Source: Squalus acanthias
Taxonomy: Eukaryota
Length of the DNA: 64,000 bases
Reading direction: 5' to 3'
Assembly: GCA_030390025.1 (NCBI GenBank)
Contig: CM059435.1
Span: 30,070,001-30,134,000, forward strand
The notes beneath the pieces are model-generated. The model saw nothing but the letters and a program-made list of their open reading frames with translations. It did not search any database and was not told the DNA's origin. Within the stretch, counting starts at the first letter, position 1; each line of letters starts with the position of its first letter. Position numbers and translations under genes: made by a program. Shown in pieces: positions 3,391-52,042 of the stretch.

Positions 3391-5806
3391 CTTTATTACA
3401 TCTGTTGAGCAGACCTCTAATTCTTGAGCTTGGTGGATTAAAATATGAATGCATGGTTTTGAATATTTACACCTCAACTTTTTATTCCTGGAAAAATAGT
3501 AAAAATATTTTCACAAAGCTTGTGACCAAGTGATGAGTAATCCCCTTTTTTGTATTCGGAATAATGTTTTTGAATTTTCTTTTGTTGAAGAACAATTTCA
3601 GGAAGTGGTACAAAGCTTACCCTTGCGACTGACTGACTGGGGAGTCTGTGTGGAAGTCAGAGAAGACATTTCCTAAAAAGATGTTTCTGACCCAACAATA
3701 ATACTCTTATTCAGTAAAGATCAGTGAAATGTTGATTTTTTTTTTTCTGGCTGTTAAAGGTTACAAAGGCTATGTAAGCTGTCTAAACAATGAATAGTTG
3801 CAAACAATAGCAAGTCCGTTCTATTTTCTGTCCTTTTGGAAAATGTGCAACTTAGTTACTGCAATTCTCTTGATTTTTTTTTTTCTTGACAGAATGCTTG
3901 AGGGAAATGTTTGTTTGTCCATGTACTTGGGATTATGCATGCGCATTTACTGACCGTTTCTTTCCTTAATTTTTTTATCCTCTTCGCCCACCTCCCCCAC
4001 TTAAAACTGACACTGCACAGGTGTTGACTGGTTGTGCTGATTTGATGCAAAGCAATGTCCGCTTCATATCAATGTGTACAACTCCACGCTGAGGCTCCTC
4101 AAATCAAATTGACACAAAGGAGTCCAACTGCAATCGGCATGAATATGGGCACCAGATTAGCCTGTTTCTAATCTACGGGTACCTATCCAGTTTCCAGTGG
4201 CGCTCTCCTAATTGCCAGCGCTTCACAAATCCCCTCCATAGAGTCTCTTAGCACTCTGGGATAAATACCATCTACGCCTGGGCATTCATTTATTTTGAGT
4301 CCTTTTTAGCTAGTTAGGGATTTCCATTTCATTCATAATAGTCGTTGATTTTACTTGGGTTAGCTTTATTTGGAGCATATCTGCTTGGAGGAAATAAACT
4401 TTCAGAATGTTTGTCCTCAGTTTCAAGTCCATTTTGCATCTTTTCACTGCTTCTGACTACCCCACTACTGTTGTACAACTGCATTTTGTTTTTAAAAAAA
4501 AGTTGTGTTTAGCCTCCCATGGTCTGTCTTTACCCCGCTGATCACTCTTTAATGTGTTGCTGTATTTTTTTTTGTGACCCCCCCCCCCCTTTCTCCTGGA
4601 AGATTTGTAACTGTTGTTTTTCCTCGTATTTCCATTTTAATTTGTTTGCAAATGCATTTAGGGTTATGTTTTTTCAGTCTGAGCTTGTTCATTTTAGGAA
4701 TATACTTGTCCTGCATGCTCAGCATTATTCATTTGTCCTGTACTGAAGTTTCAATTGAGCAACCTATCCCAATCCATTTGCTTCAGTTCCTTTATTTATT
4801 TTATTTATTTATTTGAATTTGGTCCTTTTAAAAGTTAGATAATTGACTCCTGGTCTTGGGTATTTGTGACTCCCAGGTCATGTTGAACTTGATCATTCTT
4901 TTCCATTGCCTTTAGGGGTATTACAGCTTCTATTTACAATACATTGTCTGGATCATTGCTAAATAGCAGGTCAACGTGAGCACTGCTTCTTGTTACTTCC
5001 TTGAAGCACTGGATCATGGAACTGTTGTGCATAACATTGGCCAACGCTGACTCTAAATCACTTGTGTTTTTCAGTTTATGTTTGGATGATTGAAGGCTCC
5101 TATGAAAATAACTCTCTCATACCTTTCTTATCTCTAAAGCAAATGGTCCTCCTTTTTATGCAGACACCTCGTGTAACCTTGGATTAAAAAACAAGAGATG
5201 TCTATCCAGAGTAGTTTATTTTGCAGTTTGCCCCCTCCCACCGGATCAACTTTGGTCTCCTGCGAGTCTCTGAAACAGAGCTACATCCATTTCCTTTTCT
5301 GTGCAAACTATCTTTTTTTGAGCACAGTACACTCCTGAATATTAAGGTCATTTCCAACCTCCTGGATTTAGCCACGTTTCTCTGGTTAGTCTTGACTATA
5401 CCCACAGTTTCCTACCTTCTACTTGTAATCCATAGTTTCTAGTTTCTTTCCTGCCCCCTCCATAAATTATTGATTGCTGCCTCAATGCTCTTTGCAAGTC
5501 TCTTCCCCCCCCCCCCCCCCCCCCAACCCTCCAGCCACTTGGCTTTTGTGCAGCCTGTCTATCTTCTACTAGTCTGCTTTATTCTGAAAATCTTTCCCAT
5601 TTGTTTATGAAGGTGGCTTTGATGTTATCCCACCATGTTAGCAGCCATTTATTTACATCCTTAGTTTTCTTGGTGAACTGCCCTCCCTTCCCAAACACTG
5701 GAAGTGTATCAGAACTTTCCTATATATCCTTATCTTTGATCTTGGCGGCAATTCTTGTGTATGTGACTTTAAGGCTGACCTATTACGTCTCCCTATGTCC
5801 TTTATC

Positions 5807-5988
5807 TTAATGTCGCTACTTACCATAGTTATTCCTCCCCCCAGCCTCCCCCTTGCTTTTTTATCTGTTTCATTTCCTGCTTTTTTTCTCAGTTCTGACG
5901 AAGGGTTTCGACCTGAAACGTTAACTCTGTTTCTCTCTCCACGGATGTTGCCTGGCCTGCTGAGTTTTTCCAGCGTTTTCTGTTGTTG
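5807..5988 (+). mobile_element. Short non-autonomous Penelope-type 3' fragment with hammerhead motif
   Basis: Flanked by TGTC(C/A)TTTATC direct repeats (5796-5806, 5989-5999); tail similar to the minus-strand copy at 26141-26230. Confidence 0.75.
5891..5926 (+). ncRNA. Minimal type I hammerhead ribozyme motif
   Basis: AGTT-CTGACGA-AGG(gtttcga)CCT-GAAAC-GTT-AACT: helix I AGTT/AACT, intact core, loopless palindromic helix III (ACGT), GUU cleavage triplet. Confidence 0.7.
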
Positions 5989-6851
5989 TGTCATTTATCC
6001 CTACTTGGACTTAACGAGACAGGAAAGGGTGCAGAGGTGTTAAGTATCCCTTCTAACCTTTCCTCAGTATATACTACTGAAGCTCTAGGTAGACTATTCA
6101 TAGGTACTGTCTTTATAACACGTGGGTATCGACTTTCCTGAGCAAAGAATTCTCCATGATTACAATCTCTCTGTGTAAACTGCATCTTTGTTCAAGTTGT
6201 CCTCTCACTTTCTTGCTCCCTATTCTTTGAGACCTTGTTTCCTTTTGCATTAATAGATCCTGGGATCTGTTGATTGGTGCAATCTCGTAAGTAGTTTCAC
6301 TGGTTTTCTTACTACGTTTACTGCTTTACCATATCCCCTATCTTAATTTTCTTGGCTCAGCACTTGTTTTTATTTCATAGCAGCACAATCCCTGATTCTG
6401 CTGATTCCCTGCTCCCATCACTGATGGTTCACTCGTGAGGTCTAATGTTATTTGGACATTTCACTGACCTGGGCTAACTTTTTTTATTGGTGTTTTCTTC
6501 ATTGTTTTCCTTCTATTTGTTGCCTTTGAAATCAAATGGCCCCCTATTCCTCTTCCTCAGTGCTTCAAGGTCTCCCTTGTTTCTGAGTGACCAAGAGTGA
6601 ATCTGCGGTCTGAGCAGAGCACTCTACCGTTTGATCATGATTTCCTCTGACTTGAATTATATACATCAAAGACATAGCAAGATACAACTGAAACAATGAG
6701 GTGTAGTCGCAGGGGTTCTAACGTGTCAAAAGCTGCCGTCTGTATGTAAAACGAAAAGCTTTAACATTTTTTTACTTTTTTACTGGGAAAATTTTTACTT
6801 TTTTACTGGGAATCACATCTGTGAACAAGCTAACGACGACTCGAGTCCGGA

Positions 6852-7358
6852 TCACGTCATGTATCGTGACATAAACCCAAGATCCCGATTGAGACCGTCT
6901 TCATGAGTGCGGAACTTGGCTATCAGTTTCTGCTCGATGATTTTGCGTTGTCGTGTGTTTCTAAGGTTGCCTTGGAGAACGCTTACCCGCAGATCCGAGG
7001 CTGAATGTCCTTGACTGCTGAAGTGTTCCCCGACTGGGAGGTAACAATCCTGCCTGGCGATTGTTGCGCGGTGCTCGTTCATACGTTGTCTCAGTGTCTG
7101 CATGGTCTCGCCGATGTACCATGCCGCGGTGCATTCTTTCCTGCAACGTATGAGGTAGACAACGTTGGCCGAGTCACATGAGTATGTACCATGTACCTGG
7201 TGGGTAGTGTCCTCACGTGTGATGGTGGTATCTGTGTTGATGATCTGGCATGTCTTGCAGAGTTTGCCATGGCAGGGTTGTGTGGTGTCGTGGTCGCTGT
7301 TATCCTGAAAGCTGGGTAATTTGCTGCGAACGATGGTACTTCTGAGGTTAGGCGGCTG
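6852..7358 (-). pseudogene. Penelope ORF C-terminus: Cys-rich linker plus GIY-YIG endonuclease (5'-truncated, open frame)
   Basis: Stop-free 168-codon frame QPPNL..PCHGKLCKTC..CDSANVVYLIRC..WYIGETMQTLRQRMNEH..VGEHF..EQKLIAKFRTHEDGLNRD; extends upstream of track ORF 6852..7103. Confidence 0.9.
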
Positions 7359-7548
7359 CGACTACACCTCATTGTTTCAGTTGTATCTTGCTATGTCTTT
7401 GATGTGGTACCTTCCTGGCTGACTTAATTAACTTTATCACACCTCGGCAGATAGTCAGGATGATTTAATTTATTGGTCTGCAATTGTAAAGTACACATTC
7501 TTTGTTTTCCATCTATATATGCTTTGGAGATTCTGTATCTAATTTACT

Positions 7549-7591
7549 TCACCTGAGGAAGGAGCAAATCGATAGCTCCGAAAGCTTGTGA
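7549..7591 (+). ncRNA. Minimal type I hammerhead ribozyme motif in Penelope terminal repeat
   Basis: TCAC-CTGAGGA-A-GGAGC(aaatcgata)GCTCC-GAAAG-CTT-GTGA: helix I TCAC/GTGA, 5-bp helix II, palindromic AGCT helix III, CUU triplet. Confidence 0.8.
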
Positions 7592-7739
7592 TTTCAAATA
7601 AAACTGTTGGACTATAACCTGGTGTTGTGCGACCTCTCAATTTTGAATTATATAGCCAAAACAGTAGAATTTAGCAGTCTATTGGCTTTTTTGATTGCTC
7701 TACATTGGTTGAGTGTCGGGATCTCTCTTTTGAATTTCA

Positions 7740-8230
7740 TCTGATGCTATTTCAGCGTCATTCATGGAGTATGTGTTGCTCATTTTCCTTTCTATCTGCT
7801 AAATTTCACTAATTTGTATTCAATTTTGGCCCACTCAAATATTTTGTTTAGATCATTCAGTAATTTCAGGGCTGTCTCCTTCGATTCTACTGCCTTCCAA
7901 GGATGATATCTGCAACTTTGACTACTTTGCATTGAGTTTCTGAATCCAAGTTATTAATTAGAAGTCTAGAAACAGCAGTGGTCCCAATATATTGACCCCT
8001 GGGGCACCCCACTCTGTACTTCCTCCTTCCCACCCTGATATTTGCCCTCTGACTATTACCTATTATTTTCTACCCTTCAACCAATTTTGCTCTGAATCCC
8101 CACAGCTTTCGAGTTTGGTCATCTTTTGTATGAAACTGCTAAATGTCTTTTGGAAGCCGAAATACACAACTTCGTAGGGCTTACCACAGTTGACTTGGGT
8201 TGCCAGTTCCTCAAATAAATCGAGGATGTT
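7740..8230 (-). mobile_element. Decayed CR1-like RT fragment
   Basis: Reverse strand encodes GVPQGSILG (about 7982-8010) and a YEVVYFGFQK-like motif near 8150-8178. Confidence 0.6.
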
Positions 8231-11200
8231 GGTAATTTGTGCACGTCACTTCAGATGTCTGAATTTTTTTTAAACATGGTGCTGCAAAATAGGACTGCAC
8301 CATGGGCTGGCAGGATTGTGCTTTGAGCCACCGTGACACTCCTGCCTGTAACAAGTAATTGATCTTAACACGTATCCTGGGGCATGCAACATGCTTTCCT
8401 GGAATGAGACTTGGTTTTCTTGCAGTGTTTTTGAACAGTGCAGTCTCTTGATGGACTATATTGCACAATGCTCACGTTATAGGGCTTCATTCGTTCTGTA
8501 TTTGTATTGAATTCTTGATCATGTATAATAATTGATTACAAGTACATTTATAAAGCAAGAGTATCCTAACATCAGCTATTGATTCTCTTTTGGATGCCTT
8601 TATTGTAGATGATTTGAATTTGAGGTCAACGACTTGTAAATAGTGTGCCATGATACACATGCATTTTGAGGATGCCAGAGCTTGCTGTATGTGCAGAGAC
8701 CTTAAATGATAAGTGTGCTGCTTAGGGATAGTACTGCACCAGAGAAACTGGTGCTGCGCTGAATGCAAGGACACCGGTTCATGTCTATATTCTCTCACCG
8801 TGTGATTTCCCTATCTCAGTCCTGCTCCTGTTGGGAGTTACCAGCGACCAGGCACTTTCTCAAGACAGAAGTTGGATGGGTTGATTTGGTGTCCTTTCCA
8901 GTTGCAAAGTATGGAGTGATGTGGGAGACTAGCGACTAGTCAGCTTTCATTGAAAACCGTGGCAATTATTCACATTCTTGAATGTGAAAGGGGTACAGAA
9001 CTTCAAAAAGATTCATTGCAACCTGTTAGGCCATGCCCCTCTCTAATATGCCTTTGTATGGCTCTGAGGCAGCCTGCTGGAGGGTCAACTATGTTGCAGT
9101 TGCTCAATAATGACACTGCAGTGTAATGTGGTTTTTTTTAAAGTTTTGCGGGCGTTGTTTATTTTGCATATTCCAATTTACTTTAAACGAACTGGTAAGC
9201 TTTATGCAAGTGGAAGTGACTACAACATAAAGCATGGCTGTACACTTGCCAGGGCAAGTATTTGAGGCAGTGTTACAAGTTCTCACTCCTACCAAAACGT
9301 AGAGTTTTTAGTAGAGCCACCTTTCACTTCAGAATATGCTGCTGTGTTTTGTTTTGGGAATTTCTGCAAAATTCCTTCTACGGTACCACATTTTAAAATA
9401 TTCCTTAACCCTATAATATGTCAAGTTATGATAAGTTCAGTTTTTTTACTTGCTGTTCTATTCTTCAAATCTGACTTTTTTTAATGTTGGCAAATCTGGC
9501 TTTTCTCGTGGACTGCGATTGCAGGGTTTGTTTTTTTCCCCATTTTATTGGGAGCTGTTTGCTAATCTTGGCAGGGTGGGGGGTGGGGGGGATGTTTCAA
9601 TTTCCAAGATTGGAGGTTTTTATTCCCCTTTGTTTATTGCTACATTCATTATCCATTGAGTTACAATTTGTTGCTGTTTTATGAATATGAAATTTGGCCT
9701 GGTAATTGCAAGATTTGCATATGCATTAGTGCGACAGCACAATGTGTGCTAAATGCAACAGTTTATTACTTATTTTTATTGCACGTACTAACGATGAATG
9801 AAAGGGTTTGTAACCATTCACCTCCTAATTATAAACGCTACATTTTATGATCACAATGAGGGCGTTTGCCAAGACCACCCAGAAGTAGCAGACATGAGCA
9901 ATATTTAATTACAGCAGCATACTTGTGAAGAACGGATTATTTTTCAAACTGGGTGAAATGTTATTTTACCTGTTCCCCTCTGCACTTGTCCTGAGTAAAG
10001 AGGATCAAGAGCAGTCAACCTGCTTGCAGGCATCTACCAATGTGGTTGTGTAACGTCTGTCAGGAGTAGGGTGTGAGTGATGTTCTTTGAACATCTGCTT
10101 AATCCTGGGTTCACTCGTTGATGGTTTCTGAGTTTGGTACATGATACATCATGCCATTGTCATGTCCAATAATTTCCTGAGATATTGCACCTAGTTATGC
10201 GAAAGGGTTAAGTCTCTGTCGCAGCACATATCCTTTCAAAGATCATGAGTGCTGTTATTAAAAAGATGAGTTTATGAGAAGGAACAGCTGTGATGTTTCT
10301 GCTTTTAAGTACTAGAGTTGGCAATTCACAACTATAACATGTGGTGGTTTTTTTTTGTTATTGACATCAATCTTTTTAGTTCAGTTACAGTGTCATTTTC
10401 AAAATTATTAGAAATTTAAATTGTTTTGTATAGTTTCTGGGCACATAGTAAGGTTGATGCAGTGGGAGAAATGTTCCTGTTTGAAGTGGTATCAATATTT
10501 TTTAAGCCCATGGTCCCCAAGGAGGATCTGATTAAGTCTATAATTGTAAAAATAAAATATTATTCTTTACAAGTGACCTCAAACTTGCAGCTTCATAGGA
10601 TACGTAATCTCAGCCACAACAGTACACAGTTAGTACTGCAGTTGTGTTATCGCCACCACCCTGTTACATTGTGTAATAGTTCCACTGTGGTACCGCAAAG
10701 TAATAAAACCATTTAAAGAAAAAATGGAATTACTACTTCAGCCCCTCCCTAAGTTTCCCTAAATGTTGTTTTGAAGTTGGAACTTTCTTTAGGTTAACAG
10801 TATTGTTGGATCTGGCATAAGAGACTTGTTGCTGTACTGAAGCTATAGAGTTACTTTGCAAAATGGTTTGTATTTATAACTGGTTTACATTGACTGGAAA
10901 ACCAGCTGTAGTATTGCATACAGTTTGAGATATATTTAACTAACATGGTGTACAGCAACGGGATTGAAGTTATTGCTCGCAGAAGCAATCGGCTCCACAG
11001 CACTGACGAGGATTTTACAGCTGTATCTGCTCACCTGTATTAATTTTACCTGCTGTGTTGGCATGTCCTTCATAATGGTAATGACTCATAAATTCACCTA
11101 ACTTTATCGGCAAAAATTAAAGTAGTTTGTTGACTAAAAATTGTGTTTTAACGAGACTTGAGATGCCAGCATTATCCATGGGATTCAATCCAGATCCTGC

Positions 11201-11679
11201 ATGCATCAAGTATAATGCTGACCCTTCTTCTGGAATACTAGGCCAGTCCTGAGTCCGAGGCAGGAGTTCTTGTCCACGTGATATTAAACTATGCCTGTGC
11301 AGGATCTGTATTGGAAGCAGCTGACCATCTAAACTGTAGATATGTTGTGCAAGCTCCAATCTTGTCCTTTTTTTTATTTTAAAAATGAATGATACAGCTT
11401 TTGTGCTGCTGTTCTATAGAATTTTTATACTAATGTGTTGCAGTTGCTTCTTGGGAGCCAGGGAACTGGTAGCAGCAATAGCTTGCATTTACACTGCACC
11501 TTAATTGTAACGCAAAGCGCCAATGTGGTTTACTGAAACAGTGCCACTAAACTTGATCTGTATGTGGCTACTTTCCTCAACTACACATGTAGCTGTGTCA
11601 CCACGGTGCCACTTTACCAAACCAAAGACCAGACTTTCATGGGGTATCGAAGTTGTTTGTATTGCTAATGCTACTCCTA

Positions 11680-12555
11680 CATTTTAAAAGGGGAGATGGA
11701 ACAAGTCCAGGGAACTATAGACTAGTTAGCTTAACATTGGTGGTAGGAATATCTTTACTCAAAGATGCAATAGAAAAACATTTAGAAACTGAAAATAGAA
11801 TAGAGTGCTCAACACTGATTTCAAGAGGGAATTCTTGACCAACCTTATTAAATTCTTCAAAGAAGTAGTAGAAGGAATTGTCAAGCGTAATGCAGTAGAT
11901 GTAATATACTTGNNNNNNNNNNNNNNNNNNNNNNNNNNNNNNNNNNNNNNNNNNNNNNNNNNNNNNNNNNNNNNNNNNNNNNNNNNNNNNNNNNNNNNNN
12001 NNNNNNNNNNNNNNNNNNNNNNNNNNNNNNNNNNNNNNNNNNNNNNNNNNNNNNNNNNNNNNNNNNNNNNNNNNNNNNNNNNNNNNNNNNNNNNNNNNNN
12101 NNNNNNNNNNNNNNNNNNNNNNNNNNNNNNNNNNNNNNNNNNNNNNNNNNNNNNNNNNNNNNNNNNNNNNNNNNNNNNNNNNNNNNNNNNNNNNNNNNNN
12201 NNNNNNNNNNNNNNNNNNNNNNNNNNNNNNNNNNNNNNNNNNNNNNNNNNNNNNNNNNNNNNNNNNNNNNNNNNNNNNNNNNNNNNNNNNNNNNNNNNNN
12301 NNNNNNNNNNNNNNNNNNNNNNNNNNNNNNNNNNNNNNNNNNNNNNNNNNNNNNNNNNNNNNNNNNNNNNNNNNNNNNNNNNNNNNNNNNNNNNNNNNNN
12401 NNNNNNNNNNNNNNNNNNNNNNTAGAGGCTGATTGTGTCAAATTTTGAATGAGAATTAGGTAGATGTTTGAGGAAGTGGGTGATTGAGAGGTAATGGATT
12501 TGGGACTGGACAGATGGACTGCAGACTTTTTTCTGGTCCTGTATTTCCTATATAC
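11680..12555 (+). mobile_element. CR1 LINE fragment spanning an assembly gap
   Basis: FKRG..PGNYRLVSLT and LTNLIKFFKEV..VDVIYL on the left of the gap; CR1 3' end/UTR on the right. Confidence 0.7.
11913..12422. other. Assembly gap (510 N)
   Basis: Run of n characters. Confidence 1.
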
Positions 12556-13530
12556 CACTGTGGAGGAGGATGCTGTTTACAATATTCATAAACAATGTCT
12601 CAAAACTGCCCTGAGTCTTTTTTAAGTATGGGCCAAAAATATGATATGCCAAGAGCAAATAATTAAAAAATCCTTCGGTTCTCATGGATTATCCTTTTGT
12701 TTTGTGTTCAAATCTCTCCTGATTTGCATCCTGTAACTGGATAATATCTTCCTCATTAACAATGCAACATAAATGGGGAATGAGATATATTATTCATATT
12801 AAAAGATCTTGTCTGCATGAATGCAGTTCAGAGGCGTCCAATAAGATGCAGAACCCGAGACAACTAGTCCTTCAACCAGTTGCATCCCAGAACCATATCG
12901 CCAATTGGATCTCCGAATCATTCTAAATTGTCATGTTTGATTTGTTCTCTTTACGACTGACCTTGTCGCTGACTATACAACTACATATAACACATAAAAA
13001 AAAATATATTGGCAAAACAATATTGGCAAAACAAAGACTGCAAGATGACCTAAGGCAGAGAAAATGAAAGAGAATTAGATGGAGACAAGCAGGGAGACGC
13101 TTGCAAGAAGAGACAATTTACAAAAAAAAAAGTTGCCCTTTGTATATTGTGTCATGGCATTCTGTATAACACACGATGTTTGTTGCGCCCTGGATTTTTT
13201 TTTAAAAGAGAAAATTTAGAAAAATACACAGCTGAAGGAGAGGAGAATGTCACCTGAAAGTAGGATCACTGACTACGGACCGGTTCCAGGACCATCAGGA
13301 CAGAGTGAAAGTCTGGACTACATGTAACCCTGAAACAACAGAGGACTGGAAGCAGGGAATTTGTTAGTGAATTTTAATCCCATTTTTAATTGTAAAAAAA
13401 TTATCTAAAAGGAACTGTGATTTTTGTTGGAAGGGTTGTATTGCTACCGAGTCCAGTTTAAATCCTGTGTTCAAGTATTTGGGTCTCTGAGATGGCATTG
13501 AAGTTTGATTTGCAGTTTTTATATTTGCAG

Positions 13531-13692
13531 GAATTGCTAAAACGAACCCCCAAAAAGCACAGCGATAACTCGGCGGTAGAGAAGGCCTTGCAAGCAATGA
13601 AAGCTGTGTGCACAAATATTAATGAAACAAAGAGGCAGATGGAGAAACTAGAAGCCTTGGAACACTTGCAGTCGTCAATTGAAGGATGGGAG
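13531..13692 (+). CDS. PREX1: PREX1 internal exon, end of DH domain ([54 protein letters not shown])
   Basis: atttgcag acceptor, gtatga donor; 162 nt, phase 0/0; translation matches recalled P-Rex DH C-terminus ([24 protein letters not shown]). Confidence 0.96.
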
Positions 13693-16069: not shown

Positions 16070-16203
16070 GGTTCAAATTTGACAGATATCTGCACTGAGC
16101 TGCTGCAACAAGGACCATTGTTGAAGATTTCAGCTGGAAATATTCAGGAACGCATGTTCTTTTTGTTTGATAACTTGCTGGTGTACTGCAAAAGGAAGTC
16201 CCG
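16070..16203 (+). CDS. PREX1: PREX1 exon, PH domain start ([45 protein letters not shown])
   Basis: ttttgccag acceptor, gtaagt donor; 134 nt, phase 0/2; [25 protein letters not shown] motif. Confidence 0.96.
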
Positions 16204-18030: not shown

Positions 18031-19547
18031 CAAACAGTGCATCATTTCCCAGCAGTAAAATTTCTCTCCTTATTGATCACAAACTTTTACTTCACGCTAT
18101 GATTGCAGAAAAGGGGTGCAGCTGGTGAAATTCTTCCTACTCCTGTTCTAAAGGTCACTGACAATCTTCTGGAAAAACAAGCTTTCGGTGTACTTCTCAA
18201 TCTTCAGGTTATGAGCTGGAGAAATTGACTCAGTATCTCCAAATAAAATGAGCTGGTTTTCACGTGCTCAGTGACGTTACATTTTTCCATCCAGCACTTG
18301 TCCAGTCAGATGTTCCAGCCCAGAAACTGAAGGTTGATTAGGTACAGATTCTACAATTTAAAAAATGGTGCTCCAATGTATGGGAGGCGAGGGACTTCTT
18401 CAGCATGGTGCAGCTCATTGTTCACATAGCTTTCTTTGTACTGATTGGAAAAACAACGCTCTTCTTCTCAAATGTTAATTACAACTAATAATAATCGATT
18501 AAAGATTCTCTAGTGGTTTTTTTAAAATCTAGTTTCTGCTCTGCCTATTTATTGCAGAAAGATGAGCAAATAAATTTAAATTGTAGTCCGCTCTACCAAG
18601 GTTGAAGGGCTAACTTGCAATCCGTTTCCTGGCATGTTCTGACTTGAGTTCTCGGAACTTGCCCTGCTATTCAATTAAATAAACGTTGTTGTGGTTTTAC
18701 TTCTCGTTAGTAGCGATACAAATTCTTTCATAACACACTTTTAGAAGTATTCTGCTCAAAGGAGCAAAAAGGTTTTATTACCTTCTGGACAACATTTTAA
18801 TAAATTAATACATTAATTGTCAGTTTGCTGATAGATTAAGCAAGAGTTGAAAACTGATTTATAGAGTTGAGGTACATAGGTTCTTGTTTGAAATATTCAA
18901 CTGACTGTCTGTCTATTCTGTAATAACCAAGCTATAACAGTCTCTACTTAATGTATAGAACTGGCAACCTGATCTGTTTCTGTAACATCAGCATGAAATG
19001 GATCTTTTGCCACGGGCCTATTTCGTACTTGTTTAGCAGCTGTGGTCAAGGCGAACAGCTGACTCTGAGCTTGGAAGCTTAAGACTCAGATGAAAGCCAT
19101 GTACGTCATGAGTTTTCCATCCATTTTTGTGGAATGATCACTTTTACTTTGTGATCTGCATACTTCAGTACTCATCTTTAAATGCCATTTGGAGATTGTG
19201 AATCAGAGAATGCATTCAAAATCAGTCCTACACTGGCTATTTCAGTGAAATTTGGGGTTCACCACAGTGCAGTTTTATCTTGCTTAAGAAATGATGATTA
19301 ATTTCATATTGGGTGATTGGTTTAATTTATGGTGGAATGTTTTTTTTTTTCTTTCCCTCCCTAATTCAGTTGCCAAATAGTCCATTATAGAATGATTACC
19401 TGGTCCAGTCACAAACTAATTTAGATTGCTGTTGCGAACTTCATTACAGAGCCTGTTAACCGCGCAACAATGTGAAACCTGCTTCTGGCTGAAGAGAGAA
19501 AATATTAGATTTTTCAGTTCTAGCAGCATATGCACCAGAAATTTGAT

Positions 19548-26140: not shown

Positions 26141-26230
26141 TAAAAACAGAAAATGCTGGGAATACTCAGCAGGTCAGGCAGTATCTGTGGAGAGAGAAAG
26201 AGAGTTCAGGTCGATGACCTTTTGACAGGA
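26141..26230 (-). mobile_element. Penelope-type 3' tail with degenerate hammerhead
   Basis: Reverse complement ctgtcaa-aaggtcatcgacct-gaactctc..ccacagatactgcctgacctgctgagtattcccagcattttctg parallels 5895-5985, but the core is mutated. Confidence 0.7.
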
Positions 26231-27739
26231 GTTGACGCATGAGCAGAGACTATGGGAGACCGAAAGGAGTGCATAACCTTACGGATCTACTGCCTGGCAG
26301 GTCTAATAGTTGGAGATCTCCGTCAGTGGCCTAAGGTTGAATCCTAGCCTTTCAATTTTGCACCTCTGAGCAAATTTGATCTTCTCTTGCTCAGCTAATG
26401 AGGCCGAGTGTCGTACACAAGTGTTAGAGGTCTTTAGAACGAGAGAAAACTGCCTAAGCTGTTGTCTCGCCCCAAAATATCCACCTCTGGTTAATTGTAC
26501 TGTAATATTCAAGGTTTGAGGAAACCTGTGGATCAGCCATTCCTGCTAATTTGTTGAAAGAGGACATCTAAAGAAGTTGGGCCTCCAGGTGAGGGGCATG
26601 GAGGAGAACAAGGATTAAAATGTGGTTTTAATTTTTGTGGACTTGGTTTTCTTTCCCTGATTAGAAACACATCTGCACACAATGAGAATTTTTAATGAAT
26701 AAAATGGGACTTTCTGTACCATTCCAATTTATTGTGTACCTACTTTCATATGTTTCACAAACCTCAGCCTGCAGCTGACTTTGTTGCACTGAGATTGAAT
26801 GCCAGATCACAGAGGTGAAGTGTAGTGGCTCCGTGTCAGTAAAGGGAAAATGACAAGAACATGGGATTTACAAAAACTGCACACAGTTCTAACTACACAC
26901 ACCAGAGACTCTAATTTACTTGAAGCCATTTGGGACAGTAATAAACTTCCTGTTATAAAAAAAAACCCAATAAAAATTGTTGCATTCTGTATCCTCTCCA
27001 CATGACCTATGTTGATGAGACAAGAAATGAATGAAACTTTTTCAGGAATTTTGGTTCATAAATAAACATCTGCTGTAATGAACTCGTGCTTCATTGAAAG
27101 TGACTGCTACCCATATCTTTGAGTGGAGAATAGTGTATCCAAAGTACAAACTTGTATCCATTGCTGGCTCCACTCCGCTCCACACATTTCCAGGAAATGG
27201 ATGCAGAATATTAGTTCTACAGTGGAGCCCACTTGAAGAGGGAGAGTACTGCCGCTGCAGGGTTTATATATTTAAAAGTGAAAGTTTTGATATTATTAAG
27301 GAATTTAATACAGCAGAGTGCTGGCTGAAATTTGATTCACTATGATTTATTGCATCTTGTATATTAGCCTTCCTCCCCAAATTGATGATCACATTTTAGT
27401 CGATTGTTGAGCTCGTTACTCCGTGCACACATATTGCTCAAATACTGGCACTTGCAGTATCTCCATTTATTGTACTGATCAAATACTGAGACCTCTCAGT
27501 GGCCGCATTGCTGTACATCGTGGTTACAGTGCACCTTGAACATACTCTGTTTGCTTGATGGGGAGTACACACTTTTTCCCTATAGGGATAAATCCCACTT
27601 GCCTAAATCCAGAGAGCTTATATGCAGGTTGGCAGATTTCATGCTTGGTTACCTACTTAATGTTCAGATACTGCTGCATTTAACTGGCTAAATCATGTAG
27701 CCCATCAGGACTTGGCACTGCTAAGCCTTGCTGCTTCAT

Positions 27740-27965
27740 GTGCAGCTAGGATCATCCTGTGTGTTCGCTCTGGAATTCTCTCCCTAAACCTTTTTGCCTT
27801 TCCTACAAGACACTCTGTAAAACCTACCTCTTTGATCAAGCTTTTGGTTACTTGTCCTAATGTCTCCTCTTTCGGCTCAATCAATTTTTTGTCTGATTAG
27901 GCTTCTGTGAAGTGCCTTGGGCAGTTTTACTACGTTAAAAGTTGCTATATAAATGCAAGTTGTGG
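27740..27965 (+). mobile_element. L2 3' tail fragment
   Basis: Ends gctatataaatgcaagttgt; similar to 34310-34505. Confidence 0.7.
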
Positions 27966-29269
27966 TGGTGGTGTTGGTGTACCAGCTAGTTCAGTGAGAA
28001 GAAACCCAGCTTACAGAGATGGGTCTGTCCCTCTGGGTTCCATTCATGAGCCAGGCTGGCTCGAACGAGCACGAGAACTGTGAAGCTCCCCAGCTCGGGT
28101 ATCAGGTTGGAGTCTGCCACAGAAGGTTGAATTGGTTTCAAATTTGCATTGCTACGCATGTATTCTTCGAGTCCTCTCAATCCCCAGGAGGCCCCAATTG
28201 CAATGCCCCCTTTCTTTGTTCCCGCCGCGCCCCCGCCCCCCCCCCCCCCCGATCCCAGCCAAGGGTAGTCACGAGTTAATCATCAGACAAGTGGAAGATG
28301 AGAGTTTGAGGTTTAGGTGGAGAGCAGGTACTACCCTGGCAAGTAGTGCAGCTCATCGCAAATTGTATAAGCACATTGCCACCATCTTCCTGATCACAGT
28401 GTGCATAAGCAAAAGGTGGCTGCAGCTGTTGAAGGTGTGCAACATTAGCAAATTGCGTTGTAATCGTAGCAGGCACTGAGCCCTGGTTAGGAGTGTATGT
28501 TCATACTTGGCCTGCAGGTAAAGCCTTCCAGCAGCTGTTCCAAATCTCAGTTTCTTCAGTTTTTATGAGCAATATTGATGGCTATGTACTTTTAGCATGA
28601 TGAAAGGATCTACACAGGGCAGTTAGTGTCGTTTCTGCCATCTTGATGTTTTGGACATTTAAGTTCAATGCCACGTACCAAGCTTGCTCATCAGCAAATG
28701 CTAAATCCAGGTCCTGCTGAGTAATTTCGACTTGAGGCTGACTCTTCCTACTTTCCAGCTGCCCGTCTATTTTTCTGCCATAAATCCATCTGTTTGATCC
28801 TGGATATCATTTAGAGTCAGAGGAAGCCTTTGCATTGCATGCCTTGGAATGCTAAATGATGTAGAGGAACTGTTGGAACTTGTTTTATAAGCCAGAAGTT
28901 TGGGACTGCAATAGGACCTTTTGAAGTATAATTGGCTTGAGTATAGTGCAGTTTGTTGTTTGGAGGTTGTTGTTGGCACATTGTTGAAACTGTGAAGGGA
29001 ACTTTACCCTACATCTAACTTGTGCTTGTACCTAACCCATGACTGCTTGGTGAGAATGGATGTTCTGTTCTGCCTTGATTATAAAAAAATGCACCTAAAA
29101 GTTGTAATTTAAAAAAAAAAAATGGTCCTTTTATATTCAATGGTATTAGAATATAGAATTAGACACTTAATTTGTTTTCCATTTTTAGCAACACATGGAG
29201 TGAAATAATTTATTGCCAAGCTTGCTCTATGAATTGGTCGTGTGATGTTCTCTAACCTTTGATTTCTAG

Positions 29270-29417
29270 GTCTGAAGTTGGGCATGGAGCGTGATGCATA
29301 TGTCATGATCTCGGAGAAGGGAGAGAAGCTCTATCACATGATGATGAGCAAGAAGGGAAATCTTATAAAGGACAGGAGGAGAAAGCTTTCTATTGTCCCG
29401 AAGTGCTTTTTTGGCAA
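29270..29417 (+). CDS. PREX1: PREX1 exon, PH-DEP1 linker/DEP1 start ([48 protein letters not shown])
   Basis: gatttctag acceptor, gtaagg donor; 148 nt, phase 1/2; read manually, not in the ORF track. Confidence 0.96.
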
Positions 29418-31240
29418 GTAAGGCAACATCAATTTTCATGTCCTATTCATGCAACTTGAAAGACTGTACACTTGATTTCCTGTAAACTTCATTTTGGTTT
29501 GCCAAATCAGATAAAATTTGATGGGCCCTAATTGCAAAGACATTACTATCTATTATTCAAGCAACAGCAATTAATCATTTTTGTCTTAACTGCACGCTGA
29601 ATGCAGATTGCGTGGTGTAGCAACGCCACATATTTTCCATTACACTGTAACTTAAAAATTGCAGTGAACACAATTAAATGTTTTATAAACACTTTACAAA
29701 AAAATGTTACTACACACACAGCTTGTATTAGTTAACTGTATATTAATCCAGGTCATATTACATTCAATTATAAATCATCTGGCAATTTATGCCATGATCA
29801 ACAGCATTGCATAGTAAATTCAACCTGCTGTAATTAGATTGTATGCATTCTGCTGAATGTAGTCATTTGTTTTCTGTATCTGCTCCATAAAGTACATGTT
29901 GCATAGAGGATATCTTGCCAATTACATTGAATTCAAAGTATGAAAGATCCCTAGTGTATAATCATTGTAGATAGCGATTTACAGTTTTCTATTGCACGAG
30001 CGGAAAGCACACTTGGAACTGCATCAACAGTGATCTAATTCGTATGTTAAATGGATCTTCAGATAATTTCTGTGCTTTTTCCTGCTGCTAATTGTAAAGT
30101 GTTACATAACATTTGTGAAATAATTTATCCTTGTGAATTTTACACGAGAACAGTTGTATAACGACTGAAATGACCAGTGGTGCTAATATAAATTAAAAGA
30201 TTTAAATAGATGTTGCCCCTGCATCATGAACCAAACTGGGTCTCTTGAACGAGTAGGGAGATGACAATGTAAGTGTAGGCTTTCAACTATATCATCTGTA
30301 TGAGAATACAAGCTCCCCTGTTCCCTCCAAATGCAGTACTTAAAAAGAAAACTCCAATAATGAAAATGTCATCTGGTTTTAATATTCACCTACTATCTGT
30401 CTGTGACCTCATGACATCAGTGATATTATCCTATGTGTAACGACTGCTGATGGTATAGACTGTTCCTTTTTGTCTAAGTTTAAGTGCCTCAGATTGGCTC
30501 ATACTAATTGGTGCAACTGAGTCACCTGATTGAAACGCTGAAAGGATATTTCATTAACCATTAAATATGACAGTCAAAATTTAAAAAGGTTTATACTTTT
30601 TTGCACATAATTTGGATGTACTTGCAGTCAACATGCGCCACTAGTTGCTGTGTGTAGAAAGGTGATATTTGAGTGAATTAAAACTGAAATTTGTTTCTGG
30701 CTTTTGAAAAAGCTACTGCCTGGCTGTGGGCCAAATTCAACATAAAAGAAGCCTCAACTGTTTAAGAATTAGGCACTTGTCGGAGCTTATGAATTGTGCC
30801 AAAGGAACTCTTGGGTTTATGTACTTTAGATGGAAACTAGCTCTCAGAAATGAGCACGCAGCTTTAAAAAAAAAAAGTTTTACAGCTACAGTAGCTTGCC
30901 TGTTGACGGAGGACATTAACTTTTTAAAAAACTAATTTATTATAAAAGTTAGATTAAAAAAAAATCTAATTATCCAATTAAAATCATAGACATTTGAGTG
31001 TGTTTAGGTAAAGTCCTCGTTTATAAACGGCCTTGTAATTAATTTAATACCTTGAGGCTTCTTGTGAAAATTGCTTTTTTCTTTGCAGATTTTAATCAGA
31101 TTATATATGAACATTAACGTGAAGTTTTGTATTGCAAGTGTGCTAATAAGAGTATTTGTACTATTCAAACACTGGAGATAATTACTTGCTTTTGTTTTGT
31201 GCTAGCTGTATGAAGTTCTTGTTTAATATTTTGCTTCCAG

Positions 31241-31341
31241 TGAGTTTGTTTCCTGGCTGATGGAAATAGGAGAGATCACTAAAGCCGAGGAAGGAGTGAA
31301 TCTGGGTCAAGCATTGCTTGAGAATGGCATCATTCATCATG
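31241..31341 (+). CDS. PREX1: PREX1 exon, DEP1 ([33 protein letters not shown])
   Basis: ttgcttccag acceptor, gtgagt donor; 101 nt, phase 2/1. Confidence 0.96.
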
Positions 31342-34169
31342 GTGAGTACATCCAAGCAAACTTTTAAAGTGCATTGCAAAGGAAGGCTGCGCTTTTCATC
31401 TAGGTCCGAGGCAGCTGTCAATGATGTGCCTTGAAATGATCCAACTCAAATGAACTGGATAAATTTGCTGGCAATCAGAGTGAACACAGCTTCACTTAAA
31501 GGGGAAGCTCATTAACTCCAGTTGTCAGATTCACTCGAGTTGTTGTAAAATGCATATAAACTGTGTTTTTCATGAGAAAGCGGAACACTTTTCCTGACCA
31601 ATCTCACCATAGTTCAGTATCTTGCGCGGTTTATATCTGGCGAATATCTCCTTATAGTGCAGAGCCGTACACAGTGCTATTTGTGAGTATCTCAGCATAG
31701 TACAATGTCTTGTACAGTGTATATATGGGAACTTCATTTAACAGCTCCTTTCTCCATCCCAATGCACATGCGGACACATGCATACAAGGCAGGGTCACAC
31801 ATCTAAAAGTGTCATGTGGTGTGGGGTAACTTTTGCCTAACCCATCTAGAATTGAACTTGCACCTAATTAGTGTTTCTTCACATCTTTCAAACTACCCAA
31901 AGTGCTCATAGATGGTAAAGTGGCAGTTTGGGCACAGCAATATCCCACAAGCAGCGATATGAAGAATGACTAATTAAACTGTTCTTGGTGGTATTGGTTA
32001 ATGGAGAAATGTTGAGGATCAATATGAGGATTTCCCAACTTGAAAGTCATGATCTGTCATCACATTTATAATTTTGGAATGTGTTGCTCTGTCAGCTTAA
32101 TTTTAAACATTCAGTTTACAGTTTAATTGGGAACGAAGTAGTTCAATGTTCACTAATCTGAATAGCAGCCACTTAATTAGAAAACTTTGATTTTTTTTTG
32201 ACATTTTGAAATGACACAATTATCCAACCGGTGTTTGATACAGAAAATGCAAATATCAGACTTAAGAGGTTGAAGAGTGACCTGATGGAGATTTTCAAGA
32301 AAAGTGAAACATGTAAGGTGCAAAGTTAAGAATTATAAGGGAATCTTAAATAGTGTCCTCACACTAAAGGGGATTGGAATACAGAATTCTCAGCCTCAAA
32401 CTGCTGTTAAAATAGTTCATAAATTCAAAAAATAAGATGTCTGAAGAAGAATATTAGATTGTCTAGGAAGTGAGCAGGAAGGTGGGATTAATCGAGTTAG
32501 CTGAGGAGTAAAACACTGGCACAGATTTGAAGGGCTCAGTGGCCTGTTTCATGCTTTAAAATTCTATGATTCCATGAACACTTACCAGTTGTGTCCACTG
32601 ATAAATGGTAGAGTTGAATAGTTGCTTTTTAGGGATCGACTCAAATTGGCTTGAAATTTATTGAGAAAATCACAACTGCTGCAGGCAAAGTCTATTGCTG
32701 CCAGTTAAACAAGTTCTGCCATTCTTAGTTTTGTACTAAATGATTGACTTTTGGAACAACTTCTTCTGTGGTCTTGAAATGAGGGCAACGGAGGAGTTCT
32801 GATGCTATGCCCAGACATCTCATGGCTGTGATGGTCCATGAAAAGAGCAAAGGGAATGGTGAGAAAATACAGGATTTTTTTTTGGAAGCCATGTGTCTGA
32901 TATGTGCCAAAAACCACCATCATCCTAGAGAGACTCCAAGCTAAGCTACTGAGAAATCAACATAAGTGAGTTTCTGTTTCTGTTTCTCTTATGTGGAGGG
33001 CGTGCACTATCCCTGGAGGGACACACTCCACTTCAACCCAGAGAACTTGACTCTTGCTAGCCTGTGCCTAGCGATCGTCAAGTGTGCACATGGGGATTGC
33101 TGGAGTTTAACCAGCTACAACCACACAACGTAATGGAACAGGGCACGGTTTGTCCAGCTGGAACCACCCTACCAGTTGGGGTATTGGCTTAAAGAGTAAT
33201 CTAGAGCGAAATATCTCTGTTCCCAGTAACAGATATACCTCTCCAGGTCCTATCTATAGCCCTGGCTGACTCAGCAATGTTCTGAAGTGCTGCAGACCTG
33301 TCTGGCTCAGATTTTGGATTAAAGCAGCAATGGGAAGAAGGGACAAGGACCACAAGATGTTGTTAGGTGATTGAGATGGATTATTAATGGAGATGCTTGG
33401 ACAAAAACAAAAGTATGACAGCTTGGCATTAAAACTGAGCACTAATGGAAGGAATTGAAGTGATGAAATTAGGCCTGGGTACCAGGACCCCCAAGGAAAT
33501 AATGGAATAAAAGATACTGGAAAGTAATATCCTTAAATCAACTTAAATGAAGGAATTGAATTGCTAATTATTTTCTAGAATTGCTTTTCTTATTAAAATT
33601 GTCTGCAACTGGGTAAAATAGCTTCAGTGAAATGACCATATGCTATTCAGTACCTTGCGGTTTATCTCAAGGTTGCGCATGTTTCAGTGCATCATGTACT
33701 CTATCTACTTGATTTAAGTGTTTTGGCTATTGAAGCTAAGGCAGACCCATTTAATTTGGCTTTGGCTTGATCTGAAGCATCTCTGCCACAGCCATGGCTA
33801 ATCACTAAAAATATTCATTCTTCAAGGGAAATTAAACCTTTGAATTGCCTTTGCTTCACTTTTGACTTGCAGCTTTTACACAATTGCACCATTGGGCAGA
33901 GGAAGAGAGACAGCTTTTCACCTGCACGGTGTCTTCTAAACTTGTTGAGCATCCTCTTTACGTGCACACAATTGCTATTTATTCATCTGACCTGAACTTG
34001 CTTCTTCTGACTTGCAGAGGAATGTCTTTAAACCATGACGTTGTCCCATGTATAGTGGAGCAACTTTACATGGCATTACCCCATAATAGAATGGCTGGCG
34101 TTAAAGTACTGATTTGGAGATGCTTTTAGCAATAATCTGCAAAATTTAAAGTTACCGTTTTTAATTGTA

Positions 34170-34505
34170 TCCCTTCATGGCCTCGTCCCTCCCTATCTCT
34201 GTAACCTCAAACTCTGCGATCTCTGCGCTCCTCCAGTGCTGGCCTCCTGCGCATCCTCAATTTCCATTGCTCCACCATTGGCGGCCGTGCCTTCAGCTGC
34301 CTAGGCCCTAAGCTCTGGAATTTCCTCCCGAAACCTCTCTACCCCTCTCTCCTCCTCCTTTTAAGACACTCCTTAAAACCGACCTCTTTCACCTGTCCTA
34401 ATATCTCCTTATGTGGCTCGGTGTCAAATTTTATTTGATAATATGCCTGTGAAGTACCTTTGGACATTTTATTATGTTAAAGGCACTATATAAATGAAAG
34501 TTGGT
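34170..34505 (+). mobile_element. L2 LINE 3' end
   Basis: Encodes SLHGLVPPYL..GGRAFSCLGPKLWN, followed by the ctatataaatg tail. Confidence 0.8.
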
Positions 34506-34899
34506 GTATTTATTTATAAGTAATATAGTTGACATTCTTCACCTTCCCTGAACCACCACTTGAAAATATAAAATGTAAAGTTGATTTAATACCTTCACAA
34601 TATGCAGCCCAGAAACGGCACTGAGATGGGGGAAGACCAGCTGGGTTGTTGAGTGTGTTGTTAACATTTGATCTAATCAATATCGGAGATTATAATTTCA
34701 AGATGAAGTAACTGTTTCTAAATTTAATTGAAACTATACCATTTCCTTCAGTAAATAGCTGTCCACAGGTTTATATGTTAAACTAAGTTTAGCAAAACCC
34801 ATTTTGCTGAATGATATGGTTCTTATTAGCAAAGCACAGGTTTAATAGGGATGGGAGGGGAAGAAAAGCACAAATCTGTATGTGACAAATTCTCTCGCT

Positions 34900-35695
34900 T
34901 ACATAGAATTGCATAGTTTACAGGACAAGAACAGGCTATTCGGTCCAACATGTCCATATCGGTGTTGATGCCCCACATGAACCTCCTCCCACCCTGCTTC
35001 ATCTGACCCTATCAGCATATCCCACTATTCCTTACTCCCTCGTGTTTATCTCGCTTCCCATTAATTGCATCTATGCTATTCGCCTCAACTACTCCTTGTG
35101 GTAGCAAGTTCCACATTCTAACCACTCTGAGTAAATAATGTTCTCCTGAATTCCCTATTGGATTTATTCATGACTATCTTATATTTATGACCTCTAGTTT
35201 TGGGCTCCCCACACATGGGAACATTTACTCTATGTCTACCCTATCAAACCCTTTCATAATGTTAAAGACGTTCATCACGGAACCCCTCAGCCTTCTCTTT
35301 TCTAGAGCAAAGAATCCTAGCCTGTACAGCCTATCCTGATGAGTACTTCCCCTCAGTTCTGTTATCATCCTTGTGAATCTTTTTTGCACCTTCTCCAGTG
35401 CCTCTATATCCTTTTTGTAATATGGAGACCAGAACTGTTCGCAGTACTCCAAGTGTGGTCTAATCAAGGTTCTATACAAGTTTAACATAACTTCACTGCT
35501 TTTCAATTCTATTCCTCTAGAAATTAATGCCAATACTTGGTTTTCTTTTTTATGGCCTTATTAACCTGTGTCACTAATTTTAGTGATTTGTGTATCTGTA
35601 CCCCATGATCCCTTTGTTCCTCTAACCCTATTATCCAATCAGTATGTGGCCTCCTTATTCTTCCTACCAACATGTACCACCTCACACTTTTCTAT
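34900..35695 (-). mobile_element. CR1 LINE 3' fragment
   Basis: ORF 35225..35533 (LYRTLIRPHLEYCEQFWSPYYKKDIEALEKVQKRFTRMI) plus 3' UTR. Confidence 0.9.
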
Positions 35696-35921
35696 GTTTT
35701 GAACTTAGAACTCCCAGAAATATAATCTAGAAAATGGCAGCATTTCTAGCTGTTTAAATTATACTGTACTTCCAAGAAATTGTCAGGTTTAGTAATCATA
35801 CAGCAGTATTACATTTTTAAGTATGGTTAGATTGCAAGTCATTTTGGGATGATGGGCAAATAACATGATGCATTTTGTAGCCCTAACCTTGGTTTCTCTT
35901 GTGGACATTTTTATGTTTTAG

Positions 35922-36025
35922 TTTCTGACAAGCACCATTTCAAAAATGAGCTGGTACTCTACAGGTTTCGGTATGATGACGGAACCTACAAAGCTAGAAG
36001 TGAGATGGAAGATATCATGTCTAAG
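35922..36025 (+). CDS. PREX1: PREX1 exon, DEP1 end ([34 protein letters not shown])
   Basis: atgttttag acceptor, gtaatg donor; 104 nt, phase 1/0. Confidence 0.96.
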
Positions 36026-36233
36026 GTAATGCTCTTCTGTTGCTATAGATACATTCTATTTGAATAGGATTTCTCAGCTGTGGAACTTGCATGCTGTGTG
36101 GGGAAGGAACTTGTGGAATGAGCCCATTTGACTTGTGCTGGATACAGATGAAGAGTATTGTACATTTCTGAATAAAATTAAGGGACAGCACACTGGGTTT
36201 TGCATATAAAGGATATTACTCTTTTCTTGACAG

Positions 36234-36283
36234 GGCGTGAGGCTGTACTGTCGACTACACTGCCTTTTCACTCCTGTGGTTAA
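36234..36283 (+). CDS. PREX1: PREX1 50-nt exon (GVRLYCRLHCLFTPVVK)
   Basis: cttttcttgacag acceptor, gtaagt donor; phase 0/2; matches recalled GVRLYCRLHSL.TPVI. Confidence 0.94.
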
Positions 36284-37578
36284 GTAAGTTGTGTTATTTT
36301 TTTTTCCAGTGATTTTTGATTTCATGAGGGGTAAAGACTAAATAAACATCTGTCAATCATTGAGTGAAAAGAAACGTCCTTGCATACTACTGATTAACTA
36401 TTCAATTTGAGTCTGTTTTTGTCTTTTTTGTTCAAATAATTTCACAAATTAGAGAATTTGTTTGCATCTGTGGATTTACTTTTGCACATGAAAATAAACT
36501 TCCAAATGCCACGAAGTAATAGGGCATATTTTTGAGTAGAGTTCCCAGTATTGATGCACTAATGATAATAGGTAACTGCTTGATATATTGCTCCATATAA
36601 TGCTTCCCAGATGTAATTCAGAAACAGAATGTTGTAATCTGAATCATAAAAGATGTACATCACTCAAACGTTGTCCTTTTGCAGTTGGGATTATATCTAA
36701 TGGCCCTGTGTCTAGTTTTGCTAGATCTTCTCGTGTATAAATTGTTTTGTTTCTTCGTGAGCATTGAGTGTTAAGAATACACTGTTATAAGCTATGTCTG
36801 CCATTAATCCTGATTTCCCCAAAATGACAGCTTAATTAATTAGGGGCTGACTGAGGACATGGGACAGTTGAGACAAAGTAATCAATGTCTCATTTTAAGA
36901 GATTAAAGCATATGTTATATGTGCTGAACTTTAGCACTGTTGACTTAATTGTGTACCAGAACAATAATGAGTAAATGTGACTCAAAGTATACGAGGGTGG
37001 AAGTAGTGGTGTGTCGGTGCTAGACGTCTGCTGGAGTCTTTTTTGGTAACAGCCTTTCATTTTTAAATAAGCCGAGTCCATGCTTTTGGTACAGGAAGCT
37101 TTGCTGTATTTTTATCCCATGTTACTTCCACATGTAATTCAGTCGTGTTATCTCATTAGCAAAGGAAATAAACAATTTTCTGTAGTATGTAAACTGAGAG
37201 AGAAGTTTTTTTCTTACATAAAATCAGACTGAAGAGACAAATGTTTTTGGCATAAATTGCCTCAGTATTTTCATCAGCAAAAGCAATTTAATGCTTTCCT
37301 GCCCAGACATTTCAAGAATTTTGATGAGAAATGGCAGCTTATTTTGATGATTGTTTGCGTTCCCAAAAAGTAGCTTTCAGATTGGATCTAATGTTCAGGG
37401 CAGTTTAAGTGACAGTAGGAATAGAGTTTTTCACAAGCCTGGAAGACCTAGACCTTTGAGCCTTGCAGAGCTGAGTAATTTGGGTCTCTGCTGAACTTGA
37501 GCTTCCCGCTGATGTAGTGGCGCATTCTTGTATTGCGATTTCCAACAAGTTTAAAACTTGCTGTTAGGTTTTATTTAA

Positions 37579-37713
37579 GATGTGGAGATGCCGGTGTTGG
37601 ACTGGGGTGGACAAATGTGAGAAGTCGCACAACACCAGGTTATAGTCCCAACAGTTTTATTTGAAATCACAAGCTTTCGGAGCGCTGCTCCTTCGTCAGG
37701 TGAAGTGAAGAGA
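37579..37713 (-). mobile_element. 135-bp Penelope terminal fragment with hammerhead
   Basis: 10-bp direct repeat TTTTATTTAA at 37569-37578 and 37714-37723; near-identical in reverse to 7546-7640. Confidence 0.85.
37667..37703 (-). ncRNA. Minimal type I hammerhead ribozyme motif
   Basis: Minus strand: TCAC-CTGACGA-A-GGAGC(agc)GCTCC-GAAAG-CTT-GTGA. Confidence 0.8.
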
Positions 37714-37933
37714 TTTTATTTAAAGCATTGCTCATTTCATGTATGTTGAAACGCATGGAGTGAATTTTTGAATCCTGTAAATAATGAACTCGGGTGCATC
37801 AATATTTAAAATAAATTGATCCCTTTTTAATTTAAAGAAAAAATAATAAAAGTTTCACAAGCATTGCCTGTATATGTGAACAAAATGCCCAAACTAATAA
37901 AGGACAAATCATCTTGTATTGTATCAAACACAG

Positions 37934-52040: not shown

Positions 52041-52042
52041 GT

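Follow-up and report, generated by a model that had tools for sequence, protein, structure and literature searches.

The 64,000-nucleotide (nt) stretch of Squalus acanthias contig CM059435.1 analyzed here (the window) contains three short insertions, each carrying a minimal hammerhead ribozyme motif, in the region of the gene PREX1. We consider it very probable that these inserts are dead-on-arrival 3'-end copies of endonuclease-positive Penelope-like elements (PLEs), and that their hammerheads are passengers which, as lone intronic copies in PREX1, remain silent. Since inserts 1 and 2 are missing at the same spot in relatives, the inserts are probably inert remnants and not a device of the gene.

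Anatomy of the motifs and their inserts

A descriptor search of the window found the CUGANGA...GAAA...UH core complete in all three motifs, on the strands and at the spans given by an earlier reading of this DNA (the original prediction), with C3 located at 5895 (+), 7553 (+) and 37699 (-). Hammerhead 1 (5891-5926, plus strand) has a helix II of 4 bp that starts with a G-U pair and is capped by a UUCG loop, and its palindrome reads ACGU. In hammerheads 2 (7549-7591, plus strand) and 3 (37667-37703, minus strand), helix II has 5 bp and is closed by loops of 9 and 3 nt, respectively, and both share the palindrome AGCU. The 4-bp helix I, the short helix II and the palindromic helix III without a loop are thus present in each motif as described, and the proposed cut sites are exact, with H17 at 5922, 7587 and 37671, so that cleavage is predicted after 5922, after 7587 and, on the minus strand, between 37671 and 37670. 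The cut triplet always ends in U. All three motifs also have an unpaired extra A between positions 9 and 10.1, which the original prediction did not mention. Pair 10.1-11.1 is G-C in motifs 2 and 3 and G-U in motif 1, and the latter also occurs in several motifs of the 2014 alignment discussed below. The description of the ribozymes as intact holds for the core sequence only, any activity being putative.

When the extra A was left out, a strict descriptor retrieved motif 1 alone, in a reading whose first pair is A-U. A consensus-based descriptor, which was written after the motifs had been seen and follows the published minimal-hammerhead consensus, found 3 of 3 motifs in the window and none in 1000 windows simulated with an order-2 Markov model. 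The window contains 11 core-like strings, 7 of which were discarded for want of a palindrome and helix I, including one at 48228 that sits inside a PREX1 exon. A probable decayed fourth minimal hammerhead is located at 18170-18210 (-), with a full core, an AGCU palindrome, a 3-bp helix I and no helix II; such partial matches average 0.021 per simulated window, and clear insert bounds were not found there. Two intact motifs are sense and one is antisense to PREX1, and one or two decayed ones are antisense, numbers that are too small to read a strand bias.

The inserts are delimited by direct repeats of 10-12 bp, in agreement with the original prediction. Insert 1 (5796-5999, plus strand, including both target-site copies) is a short end piece, likely truncated on its 5' side, of a highly abundant repeat referred to as family 1, and its target-site copies at 5796-5806 and 5989-5999 match in 10 of 11 positions. 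Insert 2 (6652-7654) is bipartite, and its copies at 6652-6663 and 7643-7654 are identical (12/12), the right one overlapping the element end by 3 nt. Insert 3 (37569-37723, minus strand), an antisense end copy of approximately 145 nt that belongs to family 2, starts 14 nt before C3 and is flanked by identical copies (10/10) at 37569-37578 and 37714-37723. In a random control with 1000 pairs of 40-nt stretches, repeats of at least 11 nt with one mismatch occurred in 11 pairs, exact repeats of at least 12 nt in 1, and exact repeats of at least 10 nt in 3. The bounds of inserts 1 and 2 were confirmed by the empty sites in contigs of relatives described below.

Family membership and age of the inserts

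Insert 2 contains an open frame of 169 codons (6852-7361, minus strand) that encodes a C-terminal GIY-YIG endonuclease with an upstream CX4CxxC, the homology spanning 6858-7358. This frame is 86% identical to residues 477-643 of the shark protein P0121, which has an upstream reverse transcriptase (RT) domain; the RT domain itself is absent from insert 2. Among named proteins, those most closely related to the element protein all belong to sharks. The CX4CxxC before the GIY-YIG domain falls within the CX2-5CxxC pattern of Neptune/Nematis elements, and this cysteine motif suggests that family 2 is of the Neptune/Nematis type. Family 2 endonuclease sequence was also seen in several annotated host proteins of sharks (cytochrome P450, septin 5a, XRCC5, IQ-domain K and follistatin-related 5), which may be explained by exonised copies or by errors in the gene models.

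The endonuclease piece is inverted relative to the hammerhead-bearing end, and 50 bp of the 3' untranslated region (UTR) are duplicated as a perfect inverted repeat. The left arm (6663-6712, minus strand) is the end of the inverted piece and lies within the 3' UTR, and the direct piece (7356-7645, plus strand) comprises the right arm (7356-7405), the remaining 3' UTR, the hammerhead and a tail-less end. Insert 3 is 86.5% identical to the end of insert 2 over 104 nt and runs 33 nt beyond the point where insert 2 stops. This 33-nt tail (37579-37611, minus strand) is absent from insert 2 and matches the loose-end consensus behind 7645 in sequencing runs X5 and X6, in which 52 and 12 contigs, respectively, extend past 7645 with a tail of the insert 3 type. 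The 33 constrained positions are identical in motifs 2 and 3, and both free elements (N7 and loop II) differ. Inverted truncated copies and tails of 30-40 bp have been described as PLE traits (PMC8557442), and here the inversion is found in insert 2 and the tail in insert 3. Inserts 2 and 3 therefore belong to the endonuclease-positive PLEs that carry minimal hammerheads.

Insert 1 is likely a member of this group as well, based on its motif, its target-site duplication, its abundance and the continuation of family-1 sequence behind 5984-5987 in contigs. The Penelope origin that had been proposed for all three inserts is hence supported directly for insert 2, through family membership for insert 3, and by motif and anatomy only for insert 1, and the proposed division into two families, one with ACGU (motif 1) and one with AGCU (motifs 2 and 3), is borne out. 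A decayed family-1 copy at 26142-26228 (-) is 84-86% like insert 1 downstream of the motif, with a broken core and a deleted palindrome. The start of its helix II matches the loose-end consensus before 5908 in all four runs compared below, pointing to a second family-1 subfamily.

None of the 24 listed sequencing runs is an RNA run, and contigs of four of them (X5, X6, X11 and X13) were compared with region 5560-8000 at 80% likeness, the figures being taken from the best table rows. In X11 (record 1, organism C) and X13 (record 7, organism D), one 2180-nt contig each crosses the region, and both inserts are absent: these contigs have 37 letters where the window has 232 (5807-6038, insert 1), and 4 letters where it has 994 (6664-7657, insert 2). 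A 987-nt contig from X5 (record 16, organism A, which is the code of the best-matching runs) aligns to 5972-6651 and 7643-7946 with nothing in between. It joins 6651 to 7643 with one target-site copy, the empty allele of insert 2, and retains the 3' end of insert 1. The match of record 22 in X6 ends at 6651, as in the empty allele, and was excluded from the count. Because a contig of organism A lacks insert 2, this insert is likely a presence/absence polymorphism in the species. A young age of insert 2 agrees with its perfect duplication, its perfect 50-bp inverted repeat and its open endonuclease frame.

Summed contig depth in X5 was 12 over unique bins, 4.9e6 in the bin of motif 1 and 4.2-4.4e5 over the insert 2 UTR, and both families reached 1e4 to 1e5 times the depth of the unique flank, although this depth is not copy number. 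In X11 and X13, depth was 0-17 over the insert 2 UTR and exceeded 1e5 in the endonuclease and motif-bearing bins, so the motif-bearing end of insert 2 is abundant in these runs and the UTR upstream of the motif is not. The 9-nt loop II had a depth of 7-9e5 in X5 versus 17 in X11 and 241 in X13, and in the loose-end consensus of the latter two runs loop II is the short one of motif 3. Insert 2 is thus a member of a high-copy, lineage-specific subfamily, and the long loop II is a trait of that subfamily.

Taken together, we propose that the element protein nicked AT-rich DNA, started reverse transcription downstream of the hammerhead and stopped early. Two start sites approximately 33 nt apart would give the tail-less end of insert 2 and the tailed end of insert 3, and priming from both strands would likely have produced the direct 3' piece, the inverted endonuclease piece and the 50-bp duplication of insert 2. 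As every insert spans its own scissile bond, we infer that the templates were either uncut at that bond or joined again by ligation. Within a parent element, tandem repeats would allow the motif to act as a dimer (double hammerhead), probably with the help of the element protein. A single intronic copy would have no such dimer partner, and motifs 1 and 2 would be unable to partner each other.

Several observations weigh against this interpretation. X11 and X13 come from one study and have near-identical contigs, and therefore count as a single observation, and the evidence for the empty allele of insert 2 is one contig in one run. The window contains no open reading frame (ORF) linked to insert 1, and blastn gave no link between this insert and an endonuclease remnant at 51.7 kb. 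DNA anchors outside the motifs had 0 matches in viral contigs, two metagenome scans and prokaryote genomes. The frame in insert 2 scored 22.4 bits against Pfam GIY-YIG, 0.2 bits short of the cut-off of 22.6. Of 55 positions downstream of the two family-2 motifs, only about 4 differ, so that with these two copies the conservation of the motifs over their flanks is not significant. The Rfam check that had been suggested gave 3 matches at E up to 10, none of them a hammerhead, and detected none of the three motifs. All three cores are fully intact in sequence, and for motifs 2 and 3 in their sequence context the formation of helix II is predicted (probability 0.89-0.99), using nearest-neighbour energies that omit Mg2+ and core tertiary contacts. 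Given the great abundance of both families, partners in trans may be available. Finally, the inertness of the three copies is extrapolated from other species.

In the alternative that survives best, which we still regard as improbable, inserts 1 and 3 would not be truncated full elements; they would be SINE-like or retrozyme-monomer elements, non-autonomous and with a life cycle of their own. Both are indeed short, without ORF and flanked by target-site duplications, insert 3 begins just 14 nt before its core, and monomeric derivatives of PLE terminal repeats have been described (bioRxiv 10.64898/2026.07.22.740005). However, about 100 nt of insert 3 align with the terminal part of insert 2, which bears an ORF, and insert 3 has the PLE tail, both of which argue for a truncated copy of the same element. 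Moreover, there is no tandem arrangement, inserts 2 and 3 start at different points, and none of the inserts starts at the cut site.

PREX1 context and possible activity in trans

As had been predicted, PREX1 lies on the plus strand, and shark PREX1 proteins map as ordered exons from 13.5 kb to 61.7 kb. The exon peptide at 20.1 kb matches the solved P-Rex1 (E 2.5e-28) better than it does P-Rex2. The first exon found (13531-13692, plus strand) encodes residues ~183-235 of shark PREX1, and its acceptor AG ends at 13530. A sensitive search of 1-13520 for residues 1-185 gave no credible exon, and since residues 1-182 were not found there, inserts 1 and 2 presumably lie in an intron. Insert 3 is located in the intron between the PREX1 matches at 36231-36275 and 37914-38009. 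The idea that PREX1 pre-mRNA would contain two sense copies is therefore supported as far as the strand of the gene is concerned, with the intronic position of inserts 1 and 2 being deduced. An assembly gap of 510 N at 11913-12422, upstream of the first exon found, could hide an exon, which would leave the intronic reading of inserts 1 and 2 unaffected.

It has to be considered that the sense copies are cut within PREX1 pre-mRNA by transcripts of their own family acting in trans, perhaps together with the element protein, at a small cost to the gene. In modelled pairs of the same family, all intermolecular pairs are kept (8/8 in helix I and 4/4 in helix III), whereas motif 1 paired with motif 2 or 3 keeps only 1/8 and 2/4, i.e., 3/12. 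The incompatibility of motifs 1 and 2 had been deduced from the palindromes, and it is stronger than was stated because helix I mismatches too. Other arguments for activity in trans are the family contig depth relative to the unique flank, read with the restriction given above, the protein-assisted cleavage of an anole PLE (PMC11167929), and the under-representation of tandem-derived relatives in Xenopus introns (bioRxiv 10.64898/2026.07.22.740005). On the other hand, the double hammerhead is predicted to lie above two free monomers by 2.5 kcal/mol for family 2 and by 9.7 kcal/mol for motif 1, and 9.8-16.2 kcal/mol above the best homodimer fold. Motif 1 is predicted to favour a hairpin that buries the core, the probability of its helix II being 0.01 in a 236-nt context. 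Even covalent dimers cleave poorly according to published work: for the minimal hammerheads of metazoan PLEs, which have an extra nucleotide and a palindromic 15.2-16.2, the reported cleavage was undetectable for a single motif and low for dimers (PMC4209133), and of nine Xenopus dimer elements reported, eight gave no cleavage product and one was active. PREX1 pre-mRNA would also contain antisense copies of both families (26142-26206 and 37612-37709), which could pair with the sense copies while the introns are still present and would then block the motifs (predicted duplex energies of -155 and -106 kcal/mol), though they lie 20-30 kb downstream. These models make cleavage of PREX1 RNA in trans unlikely, and we give this scenario little weight.

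Short self-complementary words are present in the loop II regions at 7566-7574, 37684-37686 and 5907-5910, and these words are predicted to let identical copies pair into an extended duplex. For the pair of motifs 2 and 3 the gap to the best fold is only 3 kcal/mol, versus 9.8-16.2 for identical copies, so mixed pairs of the same family might, in this model, cut better than perfect homodimers. More generally, a young, segregating Penelope family might scatter intact half-ribozymes in shark introns that are completed in trans by abundant family transcripts or the element protein and so cut host pre-mRNAs, a proposition that we rate marginally lower still. If it were true, the retroelement load would amount to a dispersed, family-specific RNA-cleavage network, with insert 2 as a natural allele-specific test, and this would bear on the open question of the cellular role of these ribozymes.

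A special meaning of the motifs for PREX1 was not supported. In one such scenario the motifs would have been co-opted to regulate splicing or output of PREX1, like the intronic CPEB3 ribozyme, and two intact cores less than 1.7 kb apart on the sense strand might be taken to favour it. Yet organisms C and D lack both inserts at the orthologous site, the organism A contig lacks insert 2, motifs 1 and 2 are incompatible, and the motifs are single members of very large families. The empty sites in particular largely refute co-option, which we regard as very remote. That the motifs are chance matches, as the lack of a hammerhead match in Rfam might suggest, is refuted by the simulated windows and by the verified bounds of the inserts around them, and its probability is negligible.

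Other repeats in the window include a frameshifted remnant at 51678-52050 (+) that is similar to the terminal part of a further PLE endonuclease (P0127, E 0.014). Behind it lie a pyrimidine-rich stretch and an 18-bp C/T tandem array (51981-52470), with no hammerhead following. Two inverted LINE-like fragments in PREX1 introns, at 53472-54299 and 59030-59633, are 89-93% complementary, lie approximately 5 kb apart and could form long double-stranded RNA. The 244-amino-acid frame there has no Pfam match and probably resembles CR1/L2-type RT ends.

Comparison with known systems

In the open literature, outside Repbase and subscription papers, we found no paper dealing specifically with the hammerheads of shark PLEs or with host introns being cut by them. 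The CPEB3 ribozyme has in common with motifs 1 and 2 that it lies on the sense strand of an intron, but it is HDV-like, conserved, and active as tested, whereas the motifs described here are lineage-specific repeat copies (PMC10919898). Non-LTR retrozymes, which are reported from one cartilaginous fish and occur as many intronic monomers in Xenopus, likewise carry a Type I hammerhead derived from PLE terminal repeats (bioRxiv 10.64898/2026.07.22.740005). They are described as tandem units with a motif in each unit, whereas the three inserts are all single, one of them with endonuclease sequence. We considered a retrozyme identity and rejected it, as three single copies do not form a tandem.

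The PLE minimal hammerheads reported by Cervera and De la Peña in 2014 have the same Type I topology, short helix I, additional nucleotide that separates position 9 from 10.1, loopless palindromic helix III and NUH cut site, and they are mostly single and tied to truncated elements, as observed here (PMC4209133). Motif 1 departs from the norm of that study by its G10.1-U11.1 pair instead of the usual G-C, and motif 2 by its 9-nt loop II (PMC4209133). As described there, the 2014 alignment covered 56 motifs from 40 species, with no cartilaginous fish among them (PMC4209133), and the three motifs thus add shark examples to this class, an addition of small significance in itself. The likely polymorphism of insert 2, which would belong to a young lineage-specific subfamily, points to recent activity and provides an internal control for the effect of a lone intronic hammerhead on a host transcript.

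With the Neptune/Nematis units described by Craig et al. in 2021, the inserts share the C-terminal GIY-YIG domain, the CX2-5CxxC motif, 5' truncation, an adjacent inverted copy and a tail of 30-40 bp (PMC8557442). A difference is that the inverted piece of insert 2 ends within the 3' UTR, which results in a 50-bp inverted repeat and no second hammerhead (PMC8557442). The Poseidon element of Anolis carolinensis belongs to a different PLE clade, has no cysteine linker, and its hammerhead overlaps the ORF start (PMC11167929). In the experiments of Frangieh et al. published in 2024, its reverse transcription started from two tail-defining sites, on AT-rich DNA and on both strands, and its motif was reported to cleave only with protein, with no effect of ribozyme mutants on insertion and no RNA-seq reads ending at the cut site (PMC11167929). 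The AT-rich targets, the two tail-defining start sites and an uncut RNA template are what the inserts would have in common with this element (PMC11167929), and inserts 2 and 3 represent, in a putative Neptune/Nematis-type family, the tail-less and tailed ends that the Poseidon model with two start sites predicts.

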